A stretch of 20,000 nt of DNA from an uncultured virus (IMG/VR IMGVR_UViG_3300046718_000884) (Duplodnaviria; Heunggongvirae; Uroviricota; Caudoviricetes). The DNA lies in IMG/VR virus record IMGVR_UViG_3300046718_000884; one strand, given 5' to 3'. The translations under genes were made by a program, and so were the position numbers. Below the pieces are notes generated by a model. It was given only the letters and a program-made list of their open reading frames with translations, was not told the origin of the DNA and made no database searches. Positions 2,698 through 19,980 of this stretch are shown one piece after another (position 1 is the stretch's first letter; the number at the start of each line of letters is the position of its first letter).

Positions 2698-2934
2698 ATG
2701 CCCATCGATACCGCGACCCCGTTCTATGCGAACCTTGATGGTCTGCCAGTGCGGGGCAATTACAGCGAGGCGTGGATCTACGCCGACAACAAATGGCAGA
2801 AGACCCACCCCGCCGAGATCAACCACAATGCCCATGTTATGACTCAGGCAGCTTTCGCCGAGATGTTCGGCGAGCTGCCCGATCTGCCAAGTGCGGCGTT
2901 CCATTCCGGTGACAAACTATCCAGCACCGGGTGA
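2698..2934 (+). CDS. Small protein (78 aa), candidate immunity/antitoxin for the convergent RelA/SpoT-like gene
   Basis: Very strong SD AAAGGAGGTGA (2683-2693). Overlaps the 3' end of the minus-strand gene by 91 bp. Function is inference. Confidence 0.7.
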   Translation: MPIDTATPFYANLDGLPVRGNYSEAWIYADNKWQKTHPAEINHNAHVMTQAAFAEMFGELPDLPSAAFHSGDKLSSTG

Positions 2935-3662
2935 TAGAGCGCCATCATCGCTTCAGCCTCGCGCTTGTGCCCCGCGACATCATCCGCCGCCAGTGCCTGG
3001 GCCGCTTGGTAGTGCTTATGGCCGCCCTTCACCTCTTTGGCCTCCAGCATGTCAGGGTGCCATATCTGCACCTCGCCCATCTGGCCGTTGGGGAACTTCA
3101 CCATCAGCTTGCGATCGAAATAGCCGACCGGTGTGGTTGCCCATCCCTCATCAGCGATCGGGAACCGCTTGGCGAACTCTTTGACGATCGCCTCGGCCTG
3201 CTCGGGCTTGGTGACGTTGAACCCGATGCGGGCCGCGTCGGTGATCCTGGCGGGCGTGCGGCCAGGGCGCGCCAGCTTCTCGGCCAGACGTTTGCGCTTC
3301 TTGGCGCCCGGGTTCTTCAATTCGGCGCCGCTCATCTTGCCGATCTCCTCGCCGGCCTTGCCCAGCAGGCCCTGGTTCGTCACAGATGATTCCATCAGGG
3401 CGTCCAGCGTCTTGCAGCATTCTGCCGCCGCCGTGACCCGGTCGCGCCATTCGGTGGCTGCCTTGGGGCCGTGCGCGACGACCCCCGGTTTATCCTCCCC
3501 GCCGCCGCCCTTGGGAGCCTCGCCAGCGGCCTTGCCACCACCGCCGCTACTGGTCCACTCCCCCTTGGGATCGCGCGCCTCAGAGGGGTCGTAGGCGTCG
3601 CGCGCGTAGTTCCTCGACCCGAACAGGATGTCGCGACCCATGCGCGCGCCATACAGTGTCAT
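2844..3662 (-). CDS. RelA/SpoT-like nucleotidyltransferase (small alarmone synthetase-like) with N-terminal DAYDPSEARDPKGEW tag
   Basis: Ordered motifs K..R..EK, ITDAARI, GYFDRKL and GEVQIW parallel the RelA SYNTH domain motifs. Start is likely 3662 or 3641; the listed 3713 start runs through the operator. Confidence 0.78.
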   Translation of the reverse strand: MTLYGARMGRDILFGSRNYARDAYDPSEARDPKGEWTSSGGGGKAAGEAPKGGGGEDKPGVVAHGPKAATEWRDRVTAAAECCKTLDALMESSVTNQGLLGKAGEEIGKMSGAELKNPGAKKRKRLAEKLARPGRTPARITDAARIGFNVTKPEQAEAIVKEFAKRFPIADEGWATTPVGYFDRKLMVKFPNGQMGEVQIWHPDMLEAKEVKGGHKHYQAAQALAADDVAGHKREAEAMMALYHPVLDSLSPEWNAALGRSGSSPNISAKAA

Positions 3663-3673
3663 TGGCAAAATCC

Positions 3674-3694
3674 TCTTGACATCTCGGGTCAGGA
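3674..3694. promoter_or_regulatory. Operator copy 3 between divergent genes
   Basis: TCTTGAC-atctcgg-GTCAGGA; no good -10 box downstream on the plus strand. Confidence 0.8.
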
Positions 3695-3733
3695 TGGTGT
3701 CCAGCTTCGCCACTAAGATAGGGGATAAACACG

Positions 3734-5059
3734 ATGTCTGATCCGGTTACCCGCAAGGAGTTCGATGAATTGGAAGCCCGCGTGGCGGCGCTGGAGGAGG
3801 CGATGGATATCTCCGAGCCGGAGCCGGTGCCGCCGGACCCGACCGAGGGCATCCAGGCCAAACGCGTTGTCGACCTGATCGAGCGGTTCGGGGTGAACAC
3901 GTTCAGCTCGATGGACGCGCACAATGCCTGGGGCAGTTGGCCGGCGGATTATTCACCACCGTCCACCATCGCGGCGTTGAAGTATCTCGTCGGCGACAGC
4001 GGGTTCACCCTGGGCGTTCGCGAGTATCACTATGCCGGTCGCTACGACATGCAGAAGCAGTGGTTTGCGGCGATCCTGACGGAGTTCCCCAGCACGCGGT
4101 TCACCGTCTGCCCTGGCGCCAATGCCAGCGTCGCCGATGTGCCCACCATGCTGCAGTTACCGCACACCTGGGTCGAGGGATTGAACGAGCCGAACACCGA
4201 CTTCGGTTCCGGCGAGGTGCCGTTTGAGACGACCCTCGCCATTCAGGATGCCATCATCGCTGGCGAAGATCATGGCATCATGGGTCCGTCGATCGTGGCG
4301 GGCACACCGCATCCCGAAGGCTGGATAACGGGTTACTGCGGGACACCCGAGAACCTCGCGACGCTCAACGAAAAGCTGGATCTCGGCAACGGACACTATT
4401 ACCCGCCCGCGTCGCCCGACGTGCCCGGCACCGGTTATTCGGTGAACGAGTATGTGGGCGGGCTGTGGAGTGTCTACGGACATGATCTGATCCACCTGAC
4501 CGAGTTCCATCCCACGTTATACAACGCGCGGGGTTTCAAGCCCGACCAGCTCGGCTGGGACGGCGAACGCGACGCGTATTACACACTATGCACGTGGCTG
4601 CGTTGTGCGCAGAACGGCACGCAGGGGCTGTGGTGGTATGCGTTATTCGACTACGGCACCGTCTACAAGTGTGGCCTGTTCCCGCAGAAATACGCCAACG
4701 ATCCACGACCGGCGGCCACGGCGATCCGCAACCTCTGCACGATCTGCGCTGATAAGGGCGACCGGCATGGTTTCGTGCCCGGTGTGCTGGGTATGGAGGT
4801 CACCGGGCTGACCGATGCGATGGACTACGACGTGTATCAGGCGAGCGACGGGCGGTATCTAGTACCAGTGTGGCACGCTGCCGAGGAACTCGGGCAGGGC
4901 GATGCGGTGGCAGTAACTTTCGTATTCGGCACGCCCGTGAAAAGCATCAACCTGTACAACCCGCTCGTCGGTGCCGCTCCGGTCGAGACGCGCCACGACG
5001 TCACGCATACGACGATCGCTATGTCGCCGGATGTGATCGTGTTGGAGATCCATCCGTAA
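3734..5059 (+). CDS. Putative glycoside hydrolase, clan GH-A TIM barrel with C-terminal beta domain
   Basis: FGVNT, EGLNEP (acid/base), HYYP, LTEFH (nucleophile) and WWYALFD motifs in GH-A order. Short N-terminal coiled coil and Pro linker. Confidence 0.72.
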   Translation: MSDPVTRKEFDELEARVAALEEAMDISEPEPVPPDPTEGIQAKRVVDLIERFGVNTFSSMDAHNAWGSWPADYSPPSTIAALKYLVGDSGFTLGVREYHYAGRYDMQKQWFAAILTEFPSTRFTVCPGANASVADVPTMLQLPHTWVEGLNEPNTDFGSGEVPFETTLAIQDAIIAGEDHGIMGPSIVAGTPHPEGWITGYCGTPENLATLNEKLDLGNGHYYPPASPDVPGTGYSVNEYVGGLWSVYGHDLIHLTEFHPTLYNARGFKPDQLGWDGERDAYYTLCTWLRCAQNGTQGLWWYALFDYGTVYKCGLFPQKYANDPRPAATAIRNLCTICADKGDRHGFVPGVLGMEVTGLTDAMDYDVYQASDGRYLVPVWHAAEELGQGDAVAVTFVFGTPVKSINLYNPLVGAAPVETRHDVTHTTIAMSPDVIVLEIHP

Positions 5060-5065
5060 AGGGAA

Positions 5066-5278
5066 ATGACGATGACCAAGATTCGGCGTCCGGCATTCAC
5101 GCACTGTATCCAACATAAGTCTGAGACAGACATCCGCGTGCTATACGGCAATAGGATCATCAGCCGGCACTCGACAGTCGAAGCCGCACGGCTTGCCCTG
5201 GATGCCATCTTCGCAAGTCGAGCGCTAGACCCTACCTCCGATAATCGACGTTGCCGAAAGAACGTGGCCGATGGCTGA
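5066..5278 (+). CDS. Hypothetical protein (70 aa)
   Basis: AAGGGA upstream; fills the gap between genes; codon usage is atypical. Confidence 0.5.
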   Translation: MTMTKIRRPAFTHCIQHKSETDIRVLYGNRIISRHSTVEAARLALDAIFASRALDPTSDNRRCRKNVADG

Positions 5279-5441
5279 CGAGATTGAAGCGCGCGAGGTC
5301 TTTCGCGTGGAAGTGCGCGAGGGGCATCATGTCCGGGTAGTCGTATCCGGCGAGATAGACGAGGGCCTGCTGGCCGGCCTGGAAGATTTCATCGCGTGGC
5401 GGCGGCGGCTGGCGGCAGACGTTCCTACCCGCGACCCATGA
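5271..5441 (+). CDS. Hypothetical protein (56 aa, MADEIEAREVFRVEV...), below the ORF-track cutoff
   Basis: Translated by hand; its TGA overlaps the next ATG (ATGA at 5438-5441). Confidence 0.6.
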   Translation: MADEIEAREVFRVEVREGHHVRVVVSGEIDEGLLAGLEDFIAWRRRLAADVPTRDP

Positions 5442-5677
5442 TCGACGTCACCGCCGTCATCCTGATCGGCCTGAGCGCCATCGCCATCGGGCTGTCGGTC
5501 GGCTTGCTTTGGCGCGAGATGATCCGCATAGACCGGTGGCTGACCAAGCTGGAGCTGGACGTGCGGCGCCTGGAGCGGTCGCCCGGGGTGGCGCAGCGAG
5601 AGTTTGATCTGGACCAGCTCATGGAACGCGCCAAGCGGATTGCAGCTCACGGGGTGAACAATGGCGATCACGAATGA
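5438..5677 (+). CDS. Small membrane protein (N-terminal TM helix plus coiled coil)
   Basis: MIDVTAVILIGLSAIAIGLSVGLLW hydrophobic stretch; ATGA coupling. Confidence 0.65.
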   Translation: MIDVTAVILIGLSAIAIGLSVGLLWREMIRIDRWLTKLELDVRRLERSPGVAQREFDLDQLMERAKRIAAHGVNNGDHE

Positions 5678-7448
5678 CGTTACGATCACGGTCAAGGGCA
5701 GCGTCGACTTCACTGGCGAGGTCGATGCCACGTTCGTCGTGTCATTGAGCAGCCCGACACCGCCCACACCCACGCCGACACCGCCCACACCGACGCCGAC
5801 ACCGCCCACACCAACACCCACGCCGACGCCTCTCCCCACACCCACGCCCACGCCACCGCCAGATCCCGGTCCCGGGCCGACCGCCGAGCTGTCGGTCTGC
5901 GTCGAATACAATGACACCGAGTTTTGGTATCACGCCGACGACGGCATCGACCGGGGCGACTGGATCGATCAGCGCGGCGCGTTCGTGCAGAACCGCCTCG
6001 ATGCCACCAATGCCGAGTTGCCGGAATTGCGGGTGCAGTTCCGCTGCGATCGCGACGGCACGCGCGACGAGGTCGTATTTGAGCTGGGTGACACCACGGC
6101 GGGCACCAAGGCCTACAATATGACCAGCTACACTGCGACGATCTACCGAGGCACCGATGTGCTCGCCACGGTGGATGTGCCGGAGCACTATTGGTATTCG
6201 CGCTGGCGCTGGCAATCGAAACCGCGCCCGATCGTTGCGACCACCTTGGAACTACAGGACGCCGACTTGCTGCCGCACTTCGACATGGAGCTGTCAACCA
6301 CACGCCCGCTGTCGCCGACGCGGGTGTACGAACCGATGGGCTTGGCGGGACTGACCGCCTACGTGCCGAGCACCGGCGAGCGCGACGAGATCGGACTGGT
6401 CACAGAGGCGCAAGCAGAATACCTGCGCGGTGACGCGCCGGTGGACTCGCTCATCGCGCAGGCCGAGGCGAGCGGAACCATGCCGTGGCATTATCGCAAT
6501 GAGGACGGCGGCGCGGTGTTCAATTTCATCGAACACCCGCAGGCGACGCTGTATGGGCCGACCATCCCCTGGATCGCCACGCCGATAACGCTCGACGTCG
6601 CGCATGAGCCTGATCTTGGCTACGTGCCGTTCTTGTTGACCGGCGATCCGTATTACTTGGAGGAACTACAATTCGCGGCAACATATAATGTTCTCGCATC
6701 AAATCCACAATCACGCGGCAACTACTGCATCGGGTTCGCGACCCGCGCGCACGCATGGGCGTTGCGCACTTTGGCACACTGCGCGCGTATGACACCCGAC
6801 AACGCACCCGCTTGGGTGCAGCCACGCGCGTATTGGAAGGACTGGCTTGATGGTAATCGCGACTGGATGTTGAACCGCTATGTGCATCCGACAGCGGCAC
6901 CATTCACCGCGTCGCCTTACACGATACTGCACTACATGGCCGATGCGACCAACTCGCCGGGCAGCAGCACGATGCCGGCGGGCACAGTCTCGCAGCAATG
7001 GATGGAAGATTATGAGGCGGCGGTATTAGGCCATGTCGTGGCGATCGGTTACGGCGATTGGCTGCCGATCCTAGAGTGGAAATTGGCCAACAGCATCGCT
7101 CGCACCAATGGCACAAGCGGCTGGGTGCGCGCCAAACCAACGCCATACAACGTCGCGCTGCGTGCAACGGACAAGTCACCCTACGTCCAAAGCTGGCAGG
7201 AGTCGTGGGATCTGAATGTCACGATGCAGCCGGACATCGCAGAGTTCGATGACCCCGACATCATACCGGCTGGCGACTCTTTGGTTTACGCGTCATACAC
7301 AATGTCCGCGCTGGCGATCGCGGCGGCGCTCGGCATCGAAGGAGCAACCGACTGCTACGAATGGCTGCGTTCGCAGCTCGTCGCGAATAGCGATACCAAG
7401 ACCTACGTCGATCGCAAATGGTCTATGGGATCGCTGGATCACGTGTAA
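5661..7448 (+). CDS. 595-aa protein with Pro/Thr linker and probable alpha/alpha-toroid domain, possibly carbohydrate-active
   Basis: PT linker of about 40 aa; motifs DVAHEP..YVPFLLTGDPYYLEELQF and RAHAWALRTLA; aromatic-rich helical C-terminal region. Confidence 0.7.
   Translation: MAITNDVTITVKGSVDFTGEVDATFVVSLSSPTPPTPTPTPPTPTPTPPTPTPTPTPLPTPTPTPPPDPGPGPTAELSVCVEYNDTEFWYHADDGIDRGDWIDQRGAFVQNRLDATNAELPELRVQFRCDRDGTRDEVVFELGDTTAGTKAYNMTSYTATIYRGTDVLATVDVPEHYWYSRWRWQSKPRPIVATTLELQDADLLPHFDMELSTTRPLSPTRVYEPMGLAGLTAYVPSTGERDEIGLVTEAQAEYLRGDAPVDSLIAQAEASGTMPWHYRNEDGGAVFNFIEHPQATLYGPTIPWIATPITLDVAHEPDLGYVPFLLTGDPYYLEELQFAATYNVLASNPQSRGNYCIGFATRAHAWALRTLAHCARMTPDNAPAWVQPRAYWKDWLDGNRDWMLNRYVHPTAAPFTASPYTILHYMADATNSPGSSTMPAGTVSQQWMEDYEAAVLGHVVAIGYGDWLPILEWKLANSIARTNGTSGWVRAKPTPYNVALRATDKSPYVQSWQESWDLNVTMQPDIAEFDDPDIIPAGDSLVYASYTMSALAIAAALGIEGATDCYEWLRSQLVANSDTKTYVDRKWSMGSLDHV
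5754..5816 (+). repeat. Three 21-bp tandem repeats encoding PTPPTPT
   Basis: CCGACACCGCCCACACC(C/G/A)AC(G/A) x3, followed by degenerate PT codons to about 5860. Confidence 0.9.
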
Positions 7449-7537
7449 TGCTGATCTCGCTCGGCCTCGCCGGCTTAGGCGCCGGCGGCATCATGGTGAT
7501 GGCGTTCGTGCTGGTCTATCTGGTCTCCGCGCGCTAG
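7448..7537 (+). CDS. 29-aa single-TM peptide (MLISLGLAGLGAGGIMVMAFVLVYLVSAR)
   Basis: TAATG coupling to the upstream stop; almost entirely hydrophobic. Confidence 0.5.
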   Translation: MLISLGLAGLGAGGIMVMAFVLVYLVSAR

Positions 7538-7557
7538 CTCCCGCGACGAACAAATCT

Positions 7558-7588
7558 TCTTGACGTTTCGCGTCAGGATAATTATGTT
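7558..7588 (+). promoter_or_regulatory. Promoter/operator copy 4
   Basis: TCTTGAC-gtttcgc-GTCAGGA (7558-7578). TTGACG 7560-7565, 17 bp spacer, TATGTT 7583-7588. Confidence 0.82.
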
Positions 7589-7614
7589 CGCTGCAACATA
7601 ATGGAGCACTGACG

Positions 7615-7851
7615 ATGAAAGATCCCACCGAGGCGGCGCGGCGCCGGATGGTCGAGACCGACGCCCCGGCGCGGGATCTGGCCGCCCATACCGGGGAAAC
7701 CTGGAACACCGAGGAGCTGCGCCGGGATTTCGATGTGATATGCTTCCTGGCGCCGTTCGTGCTGGTGCGACGCAAGGCCGACGGCAAGACCGGTGCCTTG
7801 GAGTTCACCCATCGCCCCCGCGTCTACTTCGACTGGCAGGAGGATCGCTGA
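7615..7851 (+). CDS. Conserved phage hypothetical protein (78 aa)
   Basis: GGAG SD; motif W.TEELRRDF.V..FLAPFV.VRRK.DG..G.LEFTH.PRVYF. Confidence 0.82.
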   Translation: MKDPTEAARRRMVETDAPARDLAAHTGETWNTEELRRDFDVICFLAPFVLVRRKADGKTGALEFTHRPRVYFDWQEDR

Positions 7852-8054
7852 TGGCCACGCTGGACGAGGATCACGTCGTCGGCTTGCTGCGCGCCGCCGG
7901 CATGGAGGTCACCCGGGAAAACTGGATCGGCGCGGCCTACGGCGACGAGGTGCCGGACCCTTGGAGCATGGAGGATGAGCTGAGCCTCCCCGAGGAGCTG
8001 CAGGACTGGTCGAAGGTCGCGACGGACGATGACGAAGGGGTAGAGGGTGCCTGA
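7851..8054 (+). CDS. Small acidic protein (67 aa), candidate immunity/DNA mimic for the portal C-terminal domain
   Basis: AGGAGG SD and TGATG coupling; very D/E-rich; convergent with the 3' end of the portal gene. Function is inference. Confidence 0.72.
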   Translation: MATLDEDHVVGLLRAAGMEVTRENWIGAAYGDEVPDPWSMEDELSLPEELQDWSKVATDDDEGVEGA

Positions 8055-8088
8055 CACTTTGATCTATGACGGGCGCGCATAGCTACAT

Positions 8089-8202
8089 GGCCAGCCTCCC
8101 TAACCGATACGTCCCCCTCAACGGGCCACGGGTTCCCGCTCATTGGACGCCGGCATGGGCAAAGTCAGTCAGGCTGAAAGTGTTTAATGACTAAGGTTGG
8201 CC
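8089..8202 (+). ncRNA. Candidate structured ncRNA
   Basis: Closing stem 8089-8097/8194-8202 with nested helices. Possible promoter TTGATC(8059)-17 bp-GCTACA(8082). Confidence 0.35.
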
Positions 8203-8211
8203 GCGCCCACC

Positions 8212-11200
8212 CTACGCATTCCCCGCCTTCTTCGCCGTCTTCGCCCGCTTGGCGCCGCGCAGCTTGCGCGCGGCCTTGGGCTTAGGCGGCGCCGGCAGGC
8301 CGTCCTCCGGCTTGTCCACGCCACCGGCCAGCTCCCAGATCGCCTGCTGGGTCCTGGCGAGGTCGCGCTCGCCGGCGTGATACTCGCGCCACAGCGCCCG
8401 CACACCGCGCACGGTGTTTTTCGTCATCCGGCTGTCGAATAGCTTACGCTTCATCTCCCAGGTGACCGACTGCAGCACGCGCGGTGCCACGCCCAGCTCG
8501 TCGCCCAGCTCGCGGTAGGCGTCGCCCCAGAGCGGGTAGGTGCCCTGCGAGCCGGTGGTGCCCGAGCCGCTGGCGCCCTCAAATCCGACCTCGCGCTTGT
8601 CCTTCTCCGGCGAGGTCTTGAGCGACTGCGCCACCGAGGTGCTGAGCGAGGTCGACGGGAACAGCAGCGCGGCACCGATCGCGTGGGTGTCCATGGTGAC
8701 GTCGCCGTTGGTCGCGGGCGGGTCGAGGATGTTGTTGTAGAACGAGCGCACCTTGTGCAGGTCGCCCATACTGAGGCTGATCGCCTCGCGGTTGCCGCCG
8801 GATTCCAGCGCGGTGATGGCGTTGCTGATCGAGTTCAGGTTCTGCCACGCGTTCTTGGCGCGCGAGCCGTCGAGATTATACCAGGGGCCGAGCACCTTGC
8901 CGTCCGGCGTCAGCCGGTTGTAGCCCTGCGCCGGATCGTGCGCCTCGTCATACGTCCTGATCCACATCGCCTTCTCGGCGGGCAATTGCAGCTCGCCCAG
9001 GGTCTTGCCCTGGACGCGCGCCAGCAGCGGGGCGTAGTCGGGCTTCGCCCAGATCTTGCGCGCCTTGGCGCTCATCTCCTCGGACCACGCGGTGTCCTGG
9101 TGATGGAAATAGATGTCGAGCAGCGCGTCGCCCTGCTTGACGTTCTGTGCCCACAGCTTCTGCGGTGACAGCGCTGCGTAGACGCCGGCGGCGCTGGCCA
9201 GCGGGATGTCGTATTCCTTCGCCTTGGCGGCGGCGAAGTCATGCGCGCCCTCATACCATTTCGGTCCCTGCTCGCGCAGGCCCGACGGCGCGTGCTCCCA
9301 CAGGAAGCGCAGGTTCGACTTGGCGAGGTCGATCGCCGCGCGCGCCATCTCCTTCGGCGACTTGCCGGCCAGATCGGCCTCGCGGAGCTGCGGATAGGCG
9401 TTGGGGTTCTGCAGCAGCTTCATGTTGGCCTTGAAGACCCGCTCGTCCTCTTCCATGCCCTTGAGGTCGGCGCGGCGGTATTTGTCGCCCTCGACGGCCT
9501 CGACCACGGTCGGGCGGCGCGTGGAGATGGTCGCGGGATGGCTGCCCTCGGCGACCCCGGGCAGCGGCGTGGTGGTCTCTTCCTTGGGATACTCGGTTAT
9601 TTCGAAGGCTTGGCCATAGGTAGGCCGTATGCTTTTCCAGACGTCGGCAACGTCCGGAACCCCAGAGCCTTTAATGATTCTGCCGTAGGCGAGCTGGGCT
9701 TCGTGTCGCTGTTCTTGTCCGGTGGTTCCGGGGTTGTCGCCGACGAGGAACTTGGCGCGTCCGGGTTGGTCGGTGGGGGTTGTGCCATAGCGCTGCGCTG
9801 CCTTCGCGACTGCCTGAGATGTTGCCTCGCCGCTGTCGCCCATGTCGACGGCGTAGATCGTGGCACCCTCTTGTGTGGGAACGATGGTGTGGAATGCAAC
9901 ACCGTCTTCCAGCAGATCCTGATGGATCTTCTCCACCGAGCCGGTGGCGTGGAAGCTGTAGAGGTGCTGGTTGCCCTCGCCCTCTTGGAACACCAAGGCG
10001 TCCTTCTGGTTCGCCAGATGCGCCTTCATCGCGGTGGCGACCTCGATCTGCTCCCAGCTCGCGCCATCCATCTCGGTCATCACGCTGTTCTCGGCGCCGT
10101 CCGACCACGCGCCGATCGCCGGGTGGCTGGTGCTGGTCAGCCCGAGCTTCTGGTCGATCTCGCGCGACGCGGTCTCCAGCAGGCGCTGGCGCTCTGAATG
10201 CAATCCCGCCGAGGCCTGGGAGAGGTCAAGGTGCTCGGCGACCGACGGCGAGTAGAACTCCACCGCATGGTGCGCCGGCGGCGGTGTAGCTGCGACTGTA
10301 GATACCGAACGGATCGGCGTAGGCGTAAATGTGGGCGTAGATGTGGGTGTAAATGTGGGCGTAGATACAGCACGGGCCGCCTCGGTGGCGGTGTGCCGCT
10401 CTGGCGCGGCAGCGGGCGCAGCATGCGCGGGCGCCTCGGCTTTCGGCTTGGCGCCACCCCCACCCGGGCCGAACTCGCCGGCGTTCTCCGGCTGACCGCG
10501 CGGGTGTTTCGACGGGTCCCACTCGGCGTCCTGCGCGTGCTGGGCGCCAAGCCTCTCCCACACCACCTGGGCCGATGGCGCAGCACTGCCGCCCGCCTCA
10601 AATTCGCCGCCACGGTCGCTGAGCGAGTAGTTGCCGGCGTCGAACACCGCGACCTTGCCGCGCCAGACCTCTAGGATCTCGTCCTTGCCGACCGCGCGAT
10701 TGACGCCGATCTCGCTCTCGCCGGTGCCCTTTACCCGGGTCTCGTGCTCTGGGTCGACGCGCTTGGCGACCATGACGTAGCAGGGCTTTTCGAAGGTCGG
10801 CTTGTGCTCCGGTGGCGCAAAGCTGTTGGCGTAGCTCTCCGCCTGATCAGGCTGGGACGACCAGTAGGTCAGGCCTTCCTGGCCGGCCATGTTATAGTCC
10901 GACACCGATTTGATCTGGCCGGTCTTCTGGAAGCTGGCGAACTCGTCGGCATCCATGCCGCGATACATATGCTCGGGGTTGGCCTCGATCGGCAGCTCGC
11001 TCGGCAGATCGCCCTTCACCGTGGCGATCTTGCGCGCGATCAGCGGCTCGTCCGGGTTCAGCGTCTCGACCTCGGCCAGCGCCGGATCGTATTGCGCGGT
11101 GTGCCGGCCCTCGTTGATGGTGACGATGCCCTTGGTCGGCTTGGCGGTGACGATCACCTCGTAGCGGTCACCGGATTCGAAGCCGCTCTTCTTCGCCTTG

Positions 11201-13272
11201 GTCGCGGTCATCTGGTAGCCGCCGCGATCGCTCAGGTTCTTCAGCTCGCGCGGCAGCTTGCCGTCGGGCAGGCCGGTCACACCATGGCCAGCGGTGGTCT
11301 TGGCGGCGCCACCGCCGCCTGGGCCGAACTCACCGGCATTCTCGGGTTGGCCACGTGGGTGCTCGGACGGGTCGAACGCGTCCATGGTGAAATCGATCGC
11401 GCCGTCCTGGCCCATCTTGATATGCGCCCGGTCGTTGCGACCCATATGCACGTGGATTTGCGCGTTCGGGTCGCTCGGGATGACCCTGATATGGCCGCGC
11501 CCCGGCACGTCGCCGCTGAGATCCTCGTCCTCGTCGCGCCCGCCCTTGTTGGGGTTGGGCGGCTTTGGCGATCCCGCCGGGCCGAGCTTGCCGGCACCGC
11601 TGGAAACCGGCCCAGCGCTGCCACCAGCCGGCGCGCTGGTGCCCATGCCGTGCGGGGCCGGGCTACCACCACCACCGGGCGCGCCATGCCCGCCACCGCC
11701 GCCTGGAGGCGGCACGCCGACCCCCTCGCCGCCCAGCGGGTCAGGCTCCTGATTCGGTGGCGGCGGCGCCGGGGTGTCGAGGTCGAGGCCCTGATACGGG
11801 CTGTCAGCCTCGGCGGACAGCCGCTGGCGGATCTCGTCGGGGCTGAGCACGCCGGCGTTGATATAGACCGCGTCGATGTCGGCCTGGGTTTTCTCGGCGG
11901 TGCTCTCCTCTTCCTCCGACAGCTCGCGCAGCGGCTCCCAGGCGTGGGTGATCGACGGATCGATCTCGCCGAACAGGTGAAGCTGCATCACCTTGAGGAT
12001 GGTGGTCAGGTTGGCGTCGTAGAACGACCCCTGGGCCGCGTGGATGAACTGTGCCCAGACCTGCAGCTCGCCCTCGCTGGTGGCGTTCAGCCCGCTGGGA
12101 GAAATCCCCAGCAGAACCACCAGGGGGATACCCACTGCGGACGCCATGTGCTCCTGGCTCTGCGCTTGGAGATGGTCGAGGCCGCCGAGAGGGGCAGATA
12201 CATTTTTGAAGTCCTCCGTGGTTTTGTCGAGGATCATCAGGTTGTTGTTGTCGCGCAGATAGTTGAACAGCGCGGCGCGCATCTTCAGCGAAGCTGCGCC
12301 GCCGGCGTTCATCACCGACCCCATGTTGGTCATCATCACCGGGGTGGAGAACGAATGGATCAGGTCGCTGACCGATTGTCTCGTTCGCAACCAGTTGTCG
12401 ACATAGGGCCGCGCCATCTGCGACAGCGACAGGCCGGCGAACGAATAGGCCGGCTTCAGCATATCCGGCATCTCGCGACCGATGAACGGCAGGATGCGGC
12501 TGCGATGGATCTCCTTGCCCATCACCCACCATGTCTGCGGCAGGTAGAAATCCGCCTTCAGCGGGTCATTGGCGTTGAACGCGTGCGGATAGGCCCACAT
12601 CGGCTCGACCACGCGCAGGCCCTTCAGCCCGCCCCGGATGACCACGCGCGGATCGATCGGCAGCGGCAGCCTGAGCAGATCCTGATCGTCGGTATCGCCG
12701 GTATCGATGTAGAGATGCGCGCGACCGAAGAACCCGTCGAGCAACGCAAGCAGGGTGAATTTTTCCTGCAGCTTGTGGAACTTGATCAGTTCCTCAAGTG
12801 CCTGGATCTTGTCGGTCTTGTCGTCATTGCCGGTTGCTTGCAGACGAAACCATCTACGAGTCATGTCTTTCGCGATGGTCTCGGAAATGCGGCGATATTC
12901 GGTGCGCTGCGACAGCTCCGCCAAATAAGGGAAGCCCGGCCAATACATGCCCTCGGTGATGCGTGAGTAACCCGAGTAGTCCATCGGGTTGTTGAGGCTG
13001 TCCAGCGCGAACCCGTCCGGCACCACGCCCGGCAATGGCTTGGCCGGCGCGAACAGCCGGCGTGCATCCTCGGCAGTGGCCGGGCGCGTGGTGTAGAGCT
13101 GCAGCGGTATGGCGTCGGTCGGCGCGCCGCCGTTCATCCCCATCAGCGCGTCGTAGAGCGCGCGGGCATCCATCTGCGGCGGCCTGGGCTGGTCTGGTGG
13201 TGGCGCCGGCTGCGCGCTGTCGCGCGCCAGCAGCCCCATGAACAGCCCGGTGAGGGTGGTCAGCAGCGACAT
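8212..13272 (-). CDS. Phage portal protein (DUF1073-type) fused to multiple C-terminal cargo domains, about 1686 aa
   Basis: Follows terL; GAGGGG SD before ATG 13272. Portal motifs GFPYLAELSQRTEYR, IHRSRI, WLRTRQSVSDLI, GIPLVVLLGISPSGLNATSEGE span about 11780-13000, followed by about 1190 extra aa. Confidence 0.9.
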   Translation of the reverse strand: MSLLTTLTGLFMGLLARDSAQPAPPPDQPRPPQMDARALYDALMGMNGGAPTDAIPLQLYTTRPATAEDARRLFAPAKPLPGVVPDGFALDSLNNPMDYSGYSRITEGMYWPGFPYLAELSQRTEYRRISETIAKDMTRRWFRLQATGNDDKTDKIQALEELIKFHKLQEKFTLLALLDGFFGRAHLYIDTGDTDDQDLLRLPLPIDPRVVIRGGLKGLRVVEPMWAYPHAFNANDPLKADFYLPQTWWVMGKEIHRSRILPFIGREMPDMLKPAYSFAGLSLSQMARPYVDNWLRTRQSVSDLIHSFSTPVMMTNMGSVMNAGGAASLKMRAALFNYLRDNNNLMILDKTTEDFKNVSAPLGGLDHLQAQSQEHMASAVGIPLVVLLGISPSGLNATSEGELQVWAQFIHAAQGSFYDANLTTILKVMQLHLFGEIDPSITHAWEPLRELSEEEESTAEKTQADIDAVYINAGVLSPDEIRQRLSAEADSPYQGLDLDTPAPPPPNQEPDPLGGEGVGVPPPGGGGGHGAPGGGGSPAPHGMGTSAPAGGSAGPVSSGAGKLGPAGSPKPPNPNKGGRDEDEDLSGDVPGRGHIRVIPSDPNAQIHVHMGRNDRAHIKMGQDGAIDFTMDAFDPSEHPRGQPENAGEFGPGGGGAAKTTAGHGVTGLPDGKLPRELKNLSDRGGYQMTATKAKKSGFESGDRYEVIVTAKPTKGIVTINEGRHTAQYDPALAEVETLNPDEPLIARKIATVKGDLPSELPIEANPEHMYRGMDADEFASFQKTGQIKSVSDYNMAGQEGLTYWSSQPDQAESYANSFAPPEHKPTFEKPCYVMVAKRVDPEHETRVKGTGESEIGVNRAVGKDEILEVWRGKVAVFDAGNYSLSDRGGEFEAGGSAAPSAQVVWERLGAQHAQDAEWDPSKHPRGQPENAGEFGPGGGGAKPKAEAPAHAAPAAAPERHTATEAARAVSTPTFTPTSTPTFTPTPIRSVSTVAATPPPAHHAVEFYSPSVAEHLDLSQASAGLHSERQRLLETASREIDQKLGLTSTSHPAIGAWSDGAENSVMTEMDGASWEQIEVATAMKAHLANQKDALVFQEGEGNQHLYSFHATGSVEKIHQDLLEDGVAFHTIVPTQEGATIYAVDMGDSGEATSQAVAKAAQRYGTTPTDQPGRAKFLVGDNPGTTGQEQRHEAQLAYGRIIKGSGVPDVADVWKSIRPTYGQAFEITEYPKEETTTPLPGVAEGSHPATISTRRPTVVEAVEGDKYRRADLKGMEEDERVFKANMKLLQNPNAYPQLREADLAGKSPKEMARAAIDLAKSNLRFLWEHAPSGLREQGPKWYEGAHDFAAAKAKEYDIPLASAAGVYAALSPQKLWAQNVKQGDALLDIYFHHQDTAWSEEMSAKARKIWAKPDYAPLLARVQGKTLGELQLPAEKAMWIRTYDEAHDPAQGYNRLTPDGKVLGPWYNLDGSRAKNAWQNLNSISNAITALESGGNREAISLSMGDLHKVRSFYNNILDPPATNGDVTMDTHAIGAALLFPSTSLSTSVAQSLKTSPEKDKREVGFEGASGSGTTGSQGTYPLWGDAYRELGDELGVAPRVLQSVTWEMKRKLFDSRMTKNTVRGVRALWREYHAGERDLARTQQAIWELAGGVDKPEDGLPAPPKPKAARKLRGAKRAKTAKKAGNA
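10325..10366 (-). repeat. 12-bp tandem repeat (about 3.5 copies) encoding a TPTF/TPTS linker in the portal fusion
   Basis: GTA(A/G)ATGTGGG(C/T) x3 plus GTAGAT on the plus strand. Confidence 0.85.
10453..11385 (-). repeat. Two copies of a peptide tag (about 10453-10533 and 11308-11385)
   Basis: MDAFDPSEHPRGQPENAGEFGPGGGGA and QDAEWDPSKHPRGQPENAGEFGPGGGGA: near-identical protein, synonymous differences in DNA. Confidence 0.92.
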
Positions 13273-13282
13273 GGCGACCCCC

Positions 13283-14713
13283 TCAATGGAAGGGTTGGGT
13301 ATCCGGCGGCACGTGAACGCCGAGCCGGCGCAATTCGTCTGGGTCAAATCGCATCGGCGGCTGCTGGGCGATGCCGTTGAAGGCACGGCTCGTCGCGTCA
13401 GCGTCGTCGTCGTGCGCGCCGAGCGGGAAGTTTTCCAGCTCGGTGAACCAGCGCTCGTTCCAGCGCCCGCGCAGCACCAGGATGTTGCCGACCTCGGCCT
13501 GCGCCGAGAACGGCCCGAAGCGGGTGATCTTGTCGCCGGACTCGGGTGAGCTGACGGCGGTGTAGCCGGCCAGCAGCCGCACCAGGGCGGCAACCTGGGC
13601 CTTACCCGCCTGTCCCGGGTCCTGCGGCAGGTCGATCGTGCAGTCGAAACCGTCGGCGCTGGCGTAGTTCAGGATGCGCCGCTCGACCTCGGCGGGGGTG
13701 CCGCGAAACGCGTCGGCGTGCAGCACGATCCAGTGGCCTTCATGGGTGAAGCCGAGCTTCACGCACGTGGTCCAGTCGGGATCGGAGTAGTCTTCTTGCT
13801 CGCTGGCCGCGAGATCCCAGCCGCGCACCAGCTTGGTGCAGACCGGCATGATGTCGACCACCTTGCACCACGAGCGGTTGAAATACAGGCCAGCCGACGG
13901 CACGATCTTCCAGTTGCCGTTGAGCAGCCGCTCGCGCTCGACCGCCGGCAGCATCATCAGGTTGCCGACATAGTTCGGATCGGCCCGCGTCAGCGCCGGG
14001 TTGTCGGCCAGCTTGGCCGAGATGAACGTCAGGCTCTTGATGGTGTTCTCGTCCTGCCCGGTCGCCACCATCGCCGCGCGCTTGCTGTCGAACCACATCA
14101 GCTCGTCGGCGGCGCCGCGCACGAAATACCGCACCACGCCGGAGCGCTCGGGCAGCGGGTAGCCGGTGTCGGGATTGATCCACCACTCGATCAACTTGGC
14201 GACCCAGGACGAGGCATCCGCGTTGCAGGTCGCGCGTATATACGGACGTATACCTGAGCGGGAGCGGTTGCGGGAGAACAGATACCAGAACTGGTACTGA
14301 GTGAACGTGGTCAGCTCATCGAAGCCGATGAACGCGCACTGCGCGCCGTGCCAGTCGAGCACGGTGGTCTCGTGCTCCAGATGCGCCATCTTGACCATGC
14401 CGTATTCCGGCCAGACCCATTCAAAGCGGTGGCTGATCGGGATGGCGTCAGAGAGCGGATAGAGCTTCATCGATTCCGCCCACAGCCCGCCAGGGCGGCG
14501 CAGGTCGACGGTCGAGCGGCGGAACACCACGGCGTCGAACCCGGCGACCGTCGAGGCGTAGCGCATCGCCTCCAGCAGCAGCGCGAAGCTCTTGCCCGAG
14601 CCGGCGGCGCCGCCATAGATCACCACGTCAGCCGACGCGGCCAGGAAGGTCTCCTGCGGCCCGGGCTGCGGGCGGATGTCGAGGTCGTCATCGTCGTCCA
14701 GGGCGGCGCTCAT
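13283..14713 (-). CDS. terL: Terminase large subunit
   Basis: PQPGPQ Q-motif, Walker A GGAAGSGKS, Walker B IGFDELT, RATCN; nuclease motifs GWDLAAS and HDDDADATS. Confidence 0.95.
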   Translation of the reverse strand: MSAALDDDDDLDIRPQPGPQETFLAASADVVIYGGAAGSGKSFALLLEAMRYASTVAGFDAVVFRRSTVDLRRPGGLWAESMKLYPLSDAIPISHRFEWVWPEYGMVKMAHLEHETTVLDWHGAQCAFIGFDELTTFTQYQFWYLFSRNRSRSGIRPYIRATCNADASSWVAKLIEWWINPDTGYPLPERSGVVRYFVRGAADELMWFDSKRAAMVATGQDENTIKSLTFISAKLADNPALTRADPNYVGNLMMLPAVERERLLNGNWKIVPSAGLYFNRSWCKVVDIMPVCTKLVRGWDLAASEQEDYSDPDWTTCVKLGFTHEGHWIVLHADAFRGTPAEVERRILNYASADGFDCTIDLPQDPGQAGKAQVAALVRLLAGYTAVSSPESGDKITRFGPFSAQAEVGNILVLRGRWNERWFTELENFPLGAHDDDADATSRAFNGIAQQPPMRFDPDELRRLGVHVPPDTQPFH

Positions 14714-19053: not shown

Positions 19054-19082
19054 TTGCAACGGTGATACGTTTTATGTATATT
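19054..19082 (+). promoter_or_regulatory. Sigma70-like promoter without the palindrome
   Basis: TTGCAA 19054-19059, 17 bp spacer, TATATT 19077-19082, in an AT-rich gap. Confidence 0.7.
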
Positions 19083-19119
19083 GCACAGCACGCAAACACG
19101 GCAAACAGGGAGCAGAACC

Positions 19120-19980
19120 ATGCCGTTCGACACCGCAATACTCGGCGAGGATTTCACGCCGATGAACCACCGCACCGTGCAGCCGATCGGCGCCAAGGCG
19201 CTGAAGATCTTCAATGAGCGCGGCGAAGAGATCGTCGGCTACCATCAGATCGTGCGCGGCGACAACGATGAAACGATCCGCGTGGCACCGGCGACTTACA
19301 CGCTGGTGCAGAATGAAGAGGCGGTCGAGAAGATCGAGGAGGCGCTGAAGAAGAGCCGGCTCGACCTGACCGACGCGCGCTTCGGCTGCGACTACAGCCA
19401 GGACGGTGCCAGGATGTTCGCGCAGTGGCTGCTGCCGGCGCACACCGCGTTCATCCGCCCCGGTGTCGAGGCCTCGCTCAGGGTGATCCTGCTGAACAGC
19501 TACGACGCCACCACGGCGTTGCAGGGGCGTATCGGCTCGTTCAACTGGGCCTGCGCCAATCAGGCGGTGTCGGGCAAAGAGTTCTCCAGCTTTCGTTTCA
19601 CCCACAAGGGCGAGATCGACTTGGGCACCGCGATCGGCAGGCTGACCCTGGCGGCGGAGGAACACGTCGAGGCGGTGCAGCGGCTGGAGCGCTGGCCGGC
19701 GATCCCGCTGTCGGACCAGCAGGCGCGCCGCATCATCGCCTCGCTGCCCAAGGCCACCGAGGCGCTGGTCGACAGCCTCGTCCACGCTTGGCTCAAAGCC
19801 CGCGACGAGGACCCGCTGCAGGGCGGGCCGAACCTGTTCTGTCTGTGGAACGTGCTCACCGCGTGGTCATCCAAGGAGCGCACGGGCGACAACGTCGCGG
19901 TGCGCAACTGGGACCGCCAGACCAAGGTCGCGGCGCTGGTGGAGAGCAAGCTGTGGCAGGACATCGAGGCAACCGGCTGA
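19120..19980 (+). CDS. DUF932/DUF945-family phage/plasmid protein
   Basis: Y.LVQNEE, DGARMF, LLNSYDATTAL..RIG.F.WACAN, F.HKG and NLF.LWN.LT motifs; GGGAG SD. Confidence 0.85.
   Translation: MPFDTAILGEDFTPMNHRTVQPIGAKALKIFNERGEEIVGYHQIVRGDNDETIRVAPATYTLVQNEEAVEKIEEALKKSRLDLTDARFGCDYSQDGARMFAQWLLPAHTAFIRPGVEASLRVILLNSYDATTALQGRIGSFNWACANQAVSGKEFSSFRFTHKGEIDLGTAIGRLTLAAEEHVEAVQRLERWPAIPLSDQQARRIIASLPKATEALVDSLVHAWLKARDEDPLQGGPNLFCLWNVLTAWSSKERTGDNVAVRNWDRQTKVAALVESKLWQDIEATG

Follow-up and report, generated by a model that had tools for sequence, protein, structure and literature searches.

Why should one short peptide recur in two unrelated genes of the same phage? The window (the whole stretch of 20,000 nucleotides analysed here, from an uncultured virus) encodes a giant portal fusion protein and a small stand-alone protein, and an earlier note had pointed to a peptide shared by both. 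All three peptides that it named were located at the positions it gave, and x-D-A was seen directly ahead of each (TMDAF, AQDAEW and ARDAY). The portal fusion gene (8212-13272) carries two copies of HPRGQPENAGEFGPGGGGA, namely DPSEHPRGQPENAGEFGPGGGG at 11308-11373 (copy 1) and DPSKHPRGQPENAGEFGPGGGG at 10453-10518 (copy 2). The small gene carries a variant, DPSEARDPKGEWTSSGGGG, at 3534-3590. Both genes and all three copies lie on the minus strand.

Tag copies and modules in the window

13283-14713, minus strand: large terminase subunit (TerL); Pfam Terminase_6N/6C, PHROG 979 E 5e-146
8212-13272, minus strand: giant portal fusion gene, from the ORF list and translation; GC3 0.84
12997-13011, minus strand: F-A-L-D-S, candidate maturation site in the portal N-terminal region, from a 13-portal alignment
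11869-12927, minus strand: portal domain, Phage_portal_3; ORF residues 223-575, Pfam E 1e-80, PHROG portal families
11302-11388, minus strand: tag 1, TMDAF-DPSEHPRGQPENAGEF-GPGGGGAA; ORF residues 736-764, local HMM E 6e-18
10549-11295, minus strand: module A; ORF residues 767-1015, homologues in four other tag proteins only
10447-10536, minus strand: tag 2, AQDAEW-DPSKHPRGQPENAGEF-GPGGGGAK; ORF residues 1020-1049, local HMM E 2e-17
9694-10311, minus strand: module B; ORF residues 1095-1300
8215-9693, minus strand: module C, with DUF7178 at 9028-9321 (Pfam E 1.4e-22)
2844-3662, minus strand: stand-alone Tas1-like (RelA/SpoT-fold) nucleotide pyrophosphokinase gene, 272 aa, from profile and fold matches
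3609-3662, minus strand: 18-residue N-terminal leader MTLYGARMGRDILFGSRN ahead of tag 3, conserved in 6/7 family members
3528-3608, minus strand: tag 3, short variant, YARDAY-DPSEARDPKGEW-TSSGGGGKA; local HMM E 3e-6
2883-3497, minus strand: folded catalytic domain of the Tas1-like protein; residues 56-260 of 272, pLDDT above 90

The portal fusion lies in a head-packaging operon, directly downstream of the TerL gene, which ends at 13283. Translation probably begins at the ATG at 13272 (M108 of an ORF opening at 13593). A single ORF of 1,686 aa contains the portal domain and three further modules. The portal is followed by a Gly/Pro-rich linker, tag 1 and module A, then by tag 2, a Pro/Thr linker, and modules B and C. 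A structural domain is thus joined to at least two modules, as in polyvalent virion proteins. The Phage_portal_3 (PF06381) match scores 271.6 bits against a gathering cut-off of 33.8, and in 826 phage records the match to the fusion is confined to the portal domain. A match to PHROG 113 is restricted to the stretch of tag 2. Module A has no Pfam match and no PDB sequence match. Module B is confidently predicted to adopt a double ferredoxin-like alpha/beta fold (AlphaFold2 mean pLDDT 89), and its PDB fold matches are only weak (TM about 0.3). It is the commonest module behind tags and is present in 35 other tag-bearing proteins.

The small protein (P0003) probably starts at M18 of ORF 2844-3713. 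In a profile search against PDB it matched the Tas1 structure 6ox6_A at E 1.4e-7, and Foldseek matched it to 8vx3 (E 7e-7) and 6ox6_A (E 2e-6, TM 0.71), as well as to the small alarmone synthetases SAS1/2, RelP and Rel; it has no Pfam match at E<=0.01. By sequence and fold it is a RelA/SpoT-homologue (Tas1-like) synthetase with predicted activity, and the identity suggested in the earlier note is borne out. Residues 1-55, which include the leader and tag 3, have pLDDT below 50 and are predicted to be disordered, and the remainder is above 90. The note had also placed the variant tag at the beginning of this protein; the tag is present at the site, but it lies about 20 residues after the likely start. 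Its statement that each tag precedes an enzyme-like domain is verified only for the Tas1-like protein; in modules A and B, the modules after tags 1 and 2, no enzyme family was recognised by sequence or fold searches.

The two portal copies share an identical 19-residue peptide, although 10/19 codons differ, every difference being synonymous, and the longest identical DNA run between them is 11 nt. This points to selection on the tag peptide rather than recent DNA duplication. Tag 3 is more divergent. Among six full-length homologues of the small protein, one (P0006) has HPRGQPGNAGEFGPGGGG in place of the ARDPGGKWT form at the same position, and a hybrid between the tag variants occurs in P0138. 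These swapped and hybrid forms indicate that tag 3 belongs to the same family. DA dipeptides as such showed no enrichment in the portal fusion (13 observed vs 12 expected).

Distribution of the tag among phage proteins

A profile made from the three copies matched 246 protein clusters (representatives) at E<=1e-3 and 26 at E<=1e-10 among 1.84 billion. The tail of the tag is a glycine run, a common feature that could suggest chance resemblance or low-complexity sequence. This explanation is practically ruled out by the 26 strong matches and by the back-translated HPRGQPENAGEF pattern, which has two matches in the window vs none in 200 shuffles. An iterated local HMM found 334 tag copies in 172 of the 176 proteins re-scanned, at 1-6 copies per protein, a sample skewed to the long variant because the profile was made from the window's own copies. 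Conservation is 88-100% at the H, P, R and G positions and at the two aromatic ones. In 82% of tags, D-E stands in place of the D-P bond seen in the window's copies, and short HPRDxxGxF variants are without the Asn of QPxN. The tag was found in genome assemblies from Firmicutes, Planctomycetes, Bacteroidia, CPR and Proteobacteria; no cultured phage carrying it was found.

The tag lies between domains. No overlap with a Pfam domain was seen for any of 235 tags, though domains span 24% of residues, and all 70 tags of portal fusions are C-terminal to the portal domain. A tag is upstream of 99/110 effector domains and downstream of 50/110, and it falls within the first 60 residues in 68/172 proteins vs the last 60 in 11/172; in some proteins it occupies residues 2-8, the extreme N-terminus. 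The effector modules behind tags in these relatives comprise ADP-ribosyltransferases (ART), NUDIX, topoisomerase IB, Zeta toxin and Acb1, and module C of the window is DUF7178. A head anchor was found in 49/169 proteins scanned (Phage_portal_3 in 20, Portal_Mu 12, lambda-type portal 4, HK97-type portal 2, DUF2213 10, MuF 3). In 29 viral contigs we counted 43 tagged ORFs. Seventeen themselves contain a head domain, 20 are within 6 kb of one, four are at 6-8 kb, and for two the locus contains none. Some loci are arrays of genes that each have their own tag, five ORFs in one (L008) and three in another (L006). Domain positions and the contig census together support the earlier note's view of the tag as a modular element ahead of cargo modules in head-associated proteins.

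The peptide might instead be a mere linker and recombination junction, a seam for module shuffling without a signalling role. Its strictly inter-domain position, its Gly-rich tail and the occurrence of the same modules in many orders behind different anchors are consistent with this. We consider it quite improbable, however, as the two portal copies, alike in peptide, differ in their DNA and would be a poor substrate for homologous exchange, a passive linker has no need of residues so conserved across phages from very different phyla, and a tag at the extreme N-terminus has nothing to link.

The part of the tag common to all these phages is a core, [W/F]-x-[E/P]-S-x-H-P-R-(G-Q-P-x-N-x)-G-x-[F/W]. 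Phages whose portals are of the Mu, lambda or HK97 type have it too. DUF2213 was absent from 5/5 tag-bearing genomes tested (including the complete genome G004, as well as G005 and G009) and MuF from 2/5, so no single phage partner explains the conservation of the core. Tentatively, the 17-residue core ([W/F]xES.HPRGQPxNxGxF) could be a universal portable cargo signal, bound by a feature of the head or exit channel regardless of portal or protease family and sufficient for loading or ejection, with lineage-specific protease sites upstream. If so, it would be a phage-wide counterpart of the T4 capsid-targeting sequence (CTS) and of encapsulin loading peptides.

A related but rather doubtful explanation is that the core is a cargo-loading peptide that binds a procapsid component (scaffold, inner capsid face, portal or MuF), cleavage being secondary or absent. 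The stand-alone proteins tagged at or near the N-terminus, the arrays of tagged genes adjoining head genes, and the predicted disorder followed by a Gly spacer, as in the loading peptides of encapsulins and T4, all favour it. However, most tags are inside portal- or protease-anchored proteins, where loading needs no signal. Moreover, portal families vary among tag-bearing phages, and the absences of DUF2213 and MuF leave no candidate receptor family common to all the genomes. The core might also act after injection or by its own chemistry, through a universal host factor, as a mark for timed degradation, or by self-cleavage. A near-identical peptide in phages with differing portals and proteases, in assemblies from Firmicutes to CPR, would fit a universal or absent partner. 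We give this little credence, since the missing Asn in the short variants is against Asn-based self-cleavage and the D-P bond is not retained in most tags; we also know of no host-factor motif that matches the core.

The upstream element and the head-maturation protease

The x-D-A ahead of the core has a narrower distribution. x-D-[AEDSKG] lies 0-2 residues from the core in 35/40 Portal3 tags (the other five have no upstream Asp) and 17/24 DUF2213 tags, and it is by the core in 2/19 tags of Mu-type, 0/5 of lambda-type and 1/4 of HK97-type portals, together 3/28. On sequence comparison, the A-x-D-A element is specific to the Portal3/DUF2213 lineage. The core occurs outside DUF2213 phages, where x-D-A is nearly absent, so it is not simply a DUF2213 site. 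P3 is Ala in 36/62 and P1' is Ala in 29/62 of the upstream elements, and P2 is M, Q or R in the window's tags and mostly M in head proteins.

The same motif recurs in the head proteins of this lineage. Homologues of the capsid protein have an invariant A-[ML]-D-A-Q-P at residues 38-43 (D40-A41 in 113/113), and the capsid protein also has A-[RA]-D-A at residues 8-11. Thirteen divergent members of the window's portal family have [LM]-A-x-D-[SDAN] ahead of their conserved core, and F-A-L-D-S of the window's portal aligns with [LM]-A-[MLQ]-D-[SDAN] of the 12 others. The protease-scaffold proteins of the lineage carry the same A-x-D motif. This phage encodes a DUF2213 protease-scaffold outside the window, in a record of the same phage (G002; E 1.7e-46) that overlaps the window over 12,105 nt at 100% identity. 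In the window and this record, four head proteins making up 24% of residues contain 9 of the 11 MD[ASDN] tripeptides, an enrichment test that is post hoc, as the site pattern was set after looking at the data. In the cultured phage SN, a single AMD[AS] was seen in each of portal, scaffold and capsid protein, against none in the 11 other CDS examined; the portal equivalent is VAMDSA at residues 70-73. BcepNY3 has two such sites in its protease and one in its capsid protein, and the eight other CDS have none.

In the E217 cryo-EM study, the capsid-protein model starts at residue 66, the 65 residues ahead of it being invisible and described as ones that 'could be cleaved'; the portal is modelled only from residue 97, and the authors allow that the missing N-termini are either disordered or cut (PMC10329688). 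The capsid model begins right after the AMD site, and the portal model begins after its site at 70-73. All three tags of the window have A-x-D-A/S upstream, the site common to capsid, portal and scaffold. These comparisons back the earlier proposal of x-D|A as a putative head-protease site, and suggest that A-x-D-[A/S] is probably a cutting site of the DUF2213 head-maturation protease.

A proposed header ahead of cargo modules

We favour, at a probability of about 0.6, the explanation that the peptides form a disordered header of about 25-30 residues ahead of each cargo module, with a DUF2213 site upstream, where a cut frees the modules and the core stays as a handle. The tag would thus probably mark proteins bound for injection into bacteria, as a common signal for their cutting and handling; here we infer cleavage, packaging, delivery and any role of the core. 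The header would have three parts, namely the upstream A-x-D|A/S element, the universal core and the glycine-rich spacer, and the proteins bearing it would be cargo carried inside the capsid (polyvalent virion proteins). Fused modules would enter the procapsid because they are joined to the inward-facing C-terminus of the portal, and the stand-alone Tas1-like toxin would enter through its own leader and header. The maturation protease would then cut at the upstream site, and the freed modules would exit together with the DNA, with the core left at each new N-terminus to serve them all as a handle. Release cannot be the only purpose of the core, since tags at residues 2-8 of a protein have hardly anything ahead of them to remove.

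Phages inject proteins besides DNA, including many counter-defence enzymes and toxins. To our knowledge, outside T4 and a few giant phages, the sorting, release and ejection of such proteins are largely unexplained. If the header is what we propose, it suggests a route by which portal-fused enzyme chains leave the head, and it offers a sequence handle for injected effectors in viromes, including family-less modules such as module B, and a candidate portable tag with which reporters might be brought into the capsids of phages. Similarly, A-M-D|A/S would be a testable cleavage rule for the DUF2213/DUF2184 head type, which is widespread and includes Pseudomonas PB1-like phages.

The proteins that carry the tag are already known. 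They are the same as the polyvalent proteins of Iyer et al. 2017 (PMC5512222) and Iyer et al. 2022 (PMC9503650). These are chains of ART, NUDIX, 2H/Acb1, Zeta toxin, InPase and LPD domains anchored to portal, MuF or protease, found in phages and conjugative elements and predicted to be injected, with processing proposed mainly by zincin-like metallopeptidases (PMC5512222, PMC9503650). Term searches of the text of the two papers gave no mention of a conserved inter-domain peptide, and we found no description or model of the tag peptide itself.

The T4 CTS is a 10-residue N-terminal propeptide that gp21 removes by cutting after Glu in I/L-x-E (PMC9026906). Like the CTS, the present tag is short, stands ahead of diverse cargo and is portable between unrelated cargo; as with the CTS, this cargo would be packed in the head and injected, and the tag would be tied to cleavage by the head-maturation protease. 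Unlike the CTS, with which it has no sequence similarity, the present core would stay on the cargo, the presumed cut being upstream and after Asp; the element also recurs inside proteins, with as many as six copies in one protein, and is common to phages with different portal and protease families. A T4-type N-terminal CTS does not fit the tag, because tags 1 and 2 lie inside the portal fusion (ORF residues 736 and 1020) and the core is downstream of the presumed cut.

Polymorphic toxins have pre-toxin boundary motifs, VENN in CdiA and PxxxxDPxGL in Rhs, and a MuF-toxin architecture is also known. Like VENN and PxxxxDPxGL, the tag is a short conserved motif at the border of a constant delivery part and variable toxin modules; unlike them, found once per protein and in bacterial secretion systems, it is repeated before modules and belongs to phage heads. 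Encapsulin cargo-loading peptides are short, lie on a flexible Gly/Pro/Ala linker and guide varied enzymes into an HK97-fold shell. The tag is likewise a short conserved peptide with a flexible linker on varied enzymes, whereas encapsulin peptides are usually C-terminal and single.

Three copies of one peptide beside the head genes

ORF translation of the window located the three peptides reported by the earlier note, all on the minus strand. Each tag has an upstream x-D-A element, a conserved core ([W/F]xES.HPR...GxF) and a Gly-rich spacer.

Tag copies in the window
11302-11388, minus strand: tag 1 in the portal fusion, TMDAF-DPSEHPRGQPENAGEF-GPGGGG
10447-10536, minus strand: tag 2 in the portal fusion, AQDAEW-DPSKHPRGQPENAGEF-GPGGGG
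3528-3608, minus strand: tag 3 in the Tas1-like protein, YARDAY-DPSEARDPKGEW-TSSGGGG, about 20 residues past the start

The core pattern matched the window twice, and no match was obtained in 200 shuffles. The two portal-fusion copies have the same 19 residues despite differences in 10 of the 19 codons, all synonymous. This indicates that the peptide rather than the DNA is being kept. In P0006, one of six full-length homologues of the small protein, HPRGQPGNAGEFGPGGGG takes the place of the short form at the same position, which argues that tag 3 is a true relative of the portal copies.

The window is phage DNA (G+C about 65%), and the tags lie in or near its head genes.

Genes relevant to the tags
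13283-14713, minus strand: large terminase gene (Terminase_6N/6C; PHROG 979, E 5e-146)
8212-13593, minus strand: portal-fusion ORF, next after the terminase gene; the likely real start is the ATG at 13272
2844-3662, minus strand: Tas1-like gene (272 aa), about 4.5 kb beyond the portal fusion

The portal-fusion product begins with Phage_portal_3 (E 1e-80, ORF residues 223-575), which is followed by more than 1,100 residues with a DUF7178 region last. The family profile of the small protein matches Tas1, a type VI effector and RelA/SpoT-fold enzyme (E 1.4e-7). Its AlphaFold2 model has pLDDT above 90 at residues 56-260 and resembles several small alarmone synthetases, among them an exported one, as well as Tas1 (TM 0.71). 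The header region, residues 1-55, is predicted to be disordered (pLDDT below 50). The wider genome was taken from two nearly identical records, G001 and G002. The viral contig G002 is 100% identical to the window across 12,105 nt and adds 26 kb (G002 coordinate, L034/L035 = window coordinate + 25916). This extension holds the remaining head module, with a MuF-like gene, a DUF2213 protease-scaffold gene (512 aa, E 1.7e-46) and a DUF2184/PF09950 capsid-protein gene. The head module of G002 is in two parts: about 16 kb separate terminase and portal from the genes for the protease-scaffold, the capsid protein and the tail, and divergently oriented small genes, the MuF-like gene and the Tas1-like gene lie in this gap.

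Spread of the tag and the proteins that carry it

With fusion residues 700-1300 as query, 29 large proteins were found, many of which aligned over 2-5% of the query with 75-87% identity; these short alignments are the tag alone. Among 1.84 billion cluster representatives, a profile of the three window copies detected 246 proteins at E<=1e-3, of which 26 reached E<=1e-10. An iterated local HMM then gave 334 tag copies, and 172 of 176 proteins were positive. Seventy proteins had a single copy, 63 had two, 27 had three, 8 had four, 4 had five and 1 had six (n=173, with the small window protein included twice, as P0002 and P0003). The shared tag of the earlier note is confirmed. In about 99% of copies, column 6 of the profile is one of the aromatics W, F and Y, followed by E (82%; P 11%), H (93%), P (88%), R (97%) and G (89%), then Q (79%), P (82%), N (84%), G (99%) and F/W (98%), and finally Gly-rich residues. 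The sample is biased to this long form because the profile was built from the window copies. Shorter forms, HPRDxxG[RK]F and DPNEPRDxxGxWTxGGG (the tag 3 type), and hybrids occur among the same proteins.

At the DNA level, a pattern for the exact peptide matched viral contigs at 34 places. When the pattern was relaxed, only 15 stretches came up among 185,579 species (one genome each), in assemblies labelled Christensenellaceae, Clostridiales, Gemmata, Pirellulales, Kiritimatiellia, Paceibacterota, Rhizobiales, Gammaproteobacteria and Bacteroidia. A tblastn search of tags of 35-38 residues against 50,697 phage records gave no match. The four-tag protein P0027 matches cultured phages of about 90 kb through NUDIX and adjoining modules (25 records), and in the one record scanned, Yersinia phage fHe-Yen8-01, the matched region had no tag. 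No cultured tag-bearing phage was found by these two approaches. Pfam, NCBIfam and PHROG have no model for the tag, except for one portal PHROG that happens to include it.

A Pfam scan of 169 proteins revealed head anchors in 49, namely Phage_portal_3 (20), Portal_Mu (12), HK97-type portal (2), lambda-type portal (4, of which 2 were above the curated cut-off), MuF (3) and DUF2213 protease (10, at either protein end). Recurring modules were topoisomerase IB, NUDIX, three ADP-ribosyltransferase families, Zeta toxin, Acb1, InPase, LPD1/LPD22, 2'-5' RNA ligase-like, GNAT, histidine phosphatase, PI3/4-kinase-like and DUF7178. The tagged proteins are of the polyvalent protein class of Iyer et al., for which packaging into the head and injection were predicted (PMC5512222; PMC9503650). 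A term search of the main texts of these two papers found no mention of the peptide.

Tags lie between domains. None of 235 overlapped a Pfam domain, though domains make up 24% of residues, and in portal fusions 70 of 70 tags were C-terminal to the portal domain. A tag was upstream of 99 of 110 effector domains and downstream of 50 of 110; the downstream tags were close to the domain (median gap 22 residues), as would be expected of the header of the next module. A tag was found in the first 60 residues of 68 of 172 proteins vs the last 60 residues of 11. From these positions, the repeating unit is header, spacer, module. Among 43 tagged ORFs in 29 viral contigs, 17 hold a head domain themselves, 20 lie <6 kb from one, 4 lie at 6-8 kb and 2 have none in the locus. 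Thus, the tag homologues are linked to head genes, where a lack of linkage would have spoken against the earlier note, and the modular header proposed there is borne out by tags that lie ahead of modules and are tied to head genes.

The further statement of the earlier note, that each tag precedes an enzyme-like domain, holds only for the Tas1-like protein; modules A and B, the portal-fusion regions after tag 1 and tag 2, match no enzyme family. For module A, four homologues were found and no family matched. A BLASTP comparison with ART-PolyVal proteins fell short of significance, and an ART assignment was rejected. Module B (9694-10311, minus strand) is present in 35 other tag-bearing proteins, always directly after a tag. 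Its predicted fold is a confident double ferredoxin-like alpha/beta domain (pLDDT 89), and its structural neighbours are weak (TM about 0.3; a phage SAM lyase reached TM 0.49 over 117 columns). It is the commonest cargo module of the tag-bearing set and has no family name.

In some phages, genes that each have their own tag form arrays. The viral contig L008 has five tagged ORFs around the protease gene, four of which carry near-identical short leaders of the type M-V-T-I-D-I-C-Y-L-D-A-P-P-K-F-D-E-S-K-H-P-R and look like a paralogous set of tagged cargo.

L008 2690-3427, 8935-10647, 15802-16434 and 17504-17716: leader genes, …T-I-D-I-[NC]-Y-x-D-A-P-P-K-F… followed by the core

In another record (G003 C1, about 38567-39869; L002 9146-10351), a MuF match lies directly upstream of the tag ORF and overlaps it in another frame, possibly a frameshift or a mis-assembled MuF-tag-cargo fusion.

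The upstream x-D-A element and the DUF2213 protease

The earlier note read x-D-A as a prohead-protease site. We scored the element as Asp followed by a small or acidic residue, <=2 residues from the core. Phage_portal_3 fusions had it in 35 of their 40 tags and DUF2213 fusions in 17 of 24; among tags of the other portal fusions it was seen in only 2 of 19 (Mu-type), 0 of 5 (lambda-type) and 1 of 4 (HK97-type). The element is lineage-specific. In the Phage_portal_3 and DUF2213 groups, Ala was at P3 in 36 of 62 and at P1' in 29 of 62.

Similar motifs were observed in head proteins of this lineage. The capsid protein of the window phage has G-M-D-A-Q-P at residues 38-43, and among 113 homologues D40 and A41 are invariant (consensus A-[ML]-D-A-Q-P); distant capsid proteins retain the motif, preceded by variable sequence. 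A second motif, A-[RA]-D-A, lies at residues 8-11. The names attached to capsid-protein homologues suggest an alphaproteobacterial host (Alphaproteobacteria) for relatives of the window phage. Thirteen divergent portals of the family have [LM]-A-[MLQ]-D-[SDAN] directly before their conserved core, and the window version, F-A-L-D-S, is a site that the earlier note had listed. Protease-scaffold proteins repeat the motif; that of the window phage has four MD[ASDN], one of which lies where the protease domain ends. In the 37 ORFs of this phage, 9 of 11 MD[ASDN] fall within four head proteins that make up 24% of residues (binomial estimate about 1e-4, for a pattern picked after the data were seen). 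In Pseudomonas phage SN (L052 3291-4439, L052 1248-2642 and L054 1346-3643), AMD[AS] occurs once each in the portal (70-73), the DUF2213-scaffold (397-400) and the capsid protein (62-65); the 11 further CDS examined have none (14 CDS, 3,262 aa in total). Burkholderia phage BcepNY3 (L053) has two in the protease, one in the capsid protein and none in eight other genes. In phage E217, the capsid-protein model comprises residues 66-382, and its authors allow that the 65 residues not visible before it could be either cleaved or disordered; the portal model starts at residue 97 (PMC10329688). A-M-D-[A/S] sits just ahead of the first residues modelled in these cryo-EM structures.

Taken together, the tag, capsid, portal, scaffold, SN/BcepNY3 and E217 results make A-M-D↓A/S (↓, proposed cut) the likely DUF2213 protease site. 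In PB1-like and related phages it is a candidate rule for where the DUF2213 head protease cleaves, with predicted cuts in cultured PB1-like phages at D64↓S65 of the capsid protein and D72↓S73 of the portal. A relaxed copy, A-x-D↓A, lies directly before the core in tags of the window's lineage. On comparative grounds, the protease-site idea is plausible. A complex prediction of the DUF2213 protease domain (1-190) with the Tas1-like N-terminus (1-62) scored 0.02, which is uninformative either way. The literature covered (polyvalent proteins, DUF2213/DUF2184, PB1-like capsid processing, Bcep781, CTS/MuF) states no DUF2213 cleavage site.

The core and a proposed release of cargo

The core is found alongside four portal families. 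DUF2213 was rejected as its universal partner, since 5 of 5 further tag-bearing records lack it, one of which is a complete 113-kb genome; so was MuF, present in 3 of the 5 and absent in 2, and Peptidase_S78 was found in 0 of 5. Therefore, no single phage-encoded partner family explains the near-constant HPRGQPxNxGxF. In Mu-type fusions the residues ahead of the core differ; tags of P0034, P0081, P0083, P0085 and others are without x-D-A, often with P-F-A before the core aromatic. This P-F-A may mark where another head protease cuts, joined to the same core. In some proteins the tag is at residues 2-8, which shows that the core is useful even with nothing upstream to remove. In our reading, modules would keep the core after release, as an N-terminal handle common to them. 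Such a handle may serve in loading, retention, exit order or transit through portal and tail, or may act in the host. A DNA-binding core (AT-hook-like PRGQP) was dropped by judgement, the composition being net acidic. Isopeptide formation or Asn self-cleavage was also dropped, since neither Lys (50%) nor Asn (84%, absent from short variants) is constant.

Portal C-termini face the head interior, so a 1,100-residue chain on each of twelve portal subunits would lie inside the head. The portal barrel of E217 has been described (PMC10329688). Judged from the shared motif, the DUF2213 protease would cut T-M-D↓A (tag 1) and A-Q-D↓A (tag 2) and free module A and modules B-C, would cut A-R-D↓A of the Tas1-like protein and remove its conserved leader, and would likewise trim the capsid protein after D40 and the portal after F-A-L-D. 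The freed proteins would exit with the DNA, as the T4 precedent and the polyvalent-protein literature suggest. The tag is similar in kind to the T4 capsid targeting sequence and to polyvalent proteins, both known. As far as the sources searched show, neither this peptide nor its recurrence ahead of every module nor its range over several head types has been described; in the text covered on polyvalent-protein cleavage, DUF2213/DUF2184, PB1-like phages, Bcep781 and CTS/MuF, no description was found, and literal matches to the motif were unrelated. In summary, the earlier interpretation is partly supported: the modular header is real, the protease site is plausible by comparison, and the neo-N-terminal signal is hypothetical.

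Between the portal gene and the Tas1-like gene are two plus-strand ORFs, 3734-5059 (441 aa) and 5661-7448 (595 aa), with no significant match in Pfam, PHROGs or NCBIfam. Only the 441-aa ORF passed the GC3 filter (0.79), and its product has S-M-D-A at residue 60, which resembles the head-protein site. Given that this ORF sits by the toxin-like gene, an immunity or cargo role is conceivable for its product. At the far window end, a DUF932-family gene (19081-19980, plus strand, E 3e-14) is unrelated to the tag finding. The sole nucleotide-level match in the phage collection is a 62-nt stretch (1439-1500), 90% identical to jumbo Xanthomonas phage XacN1.
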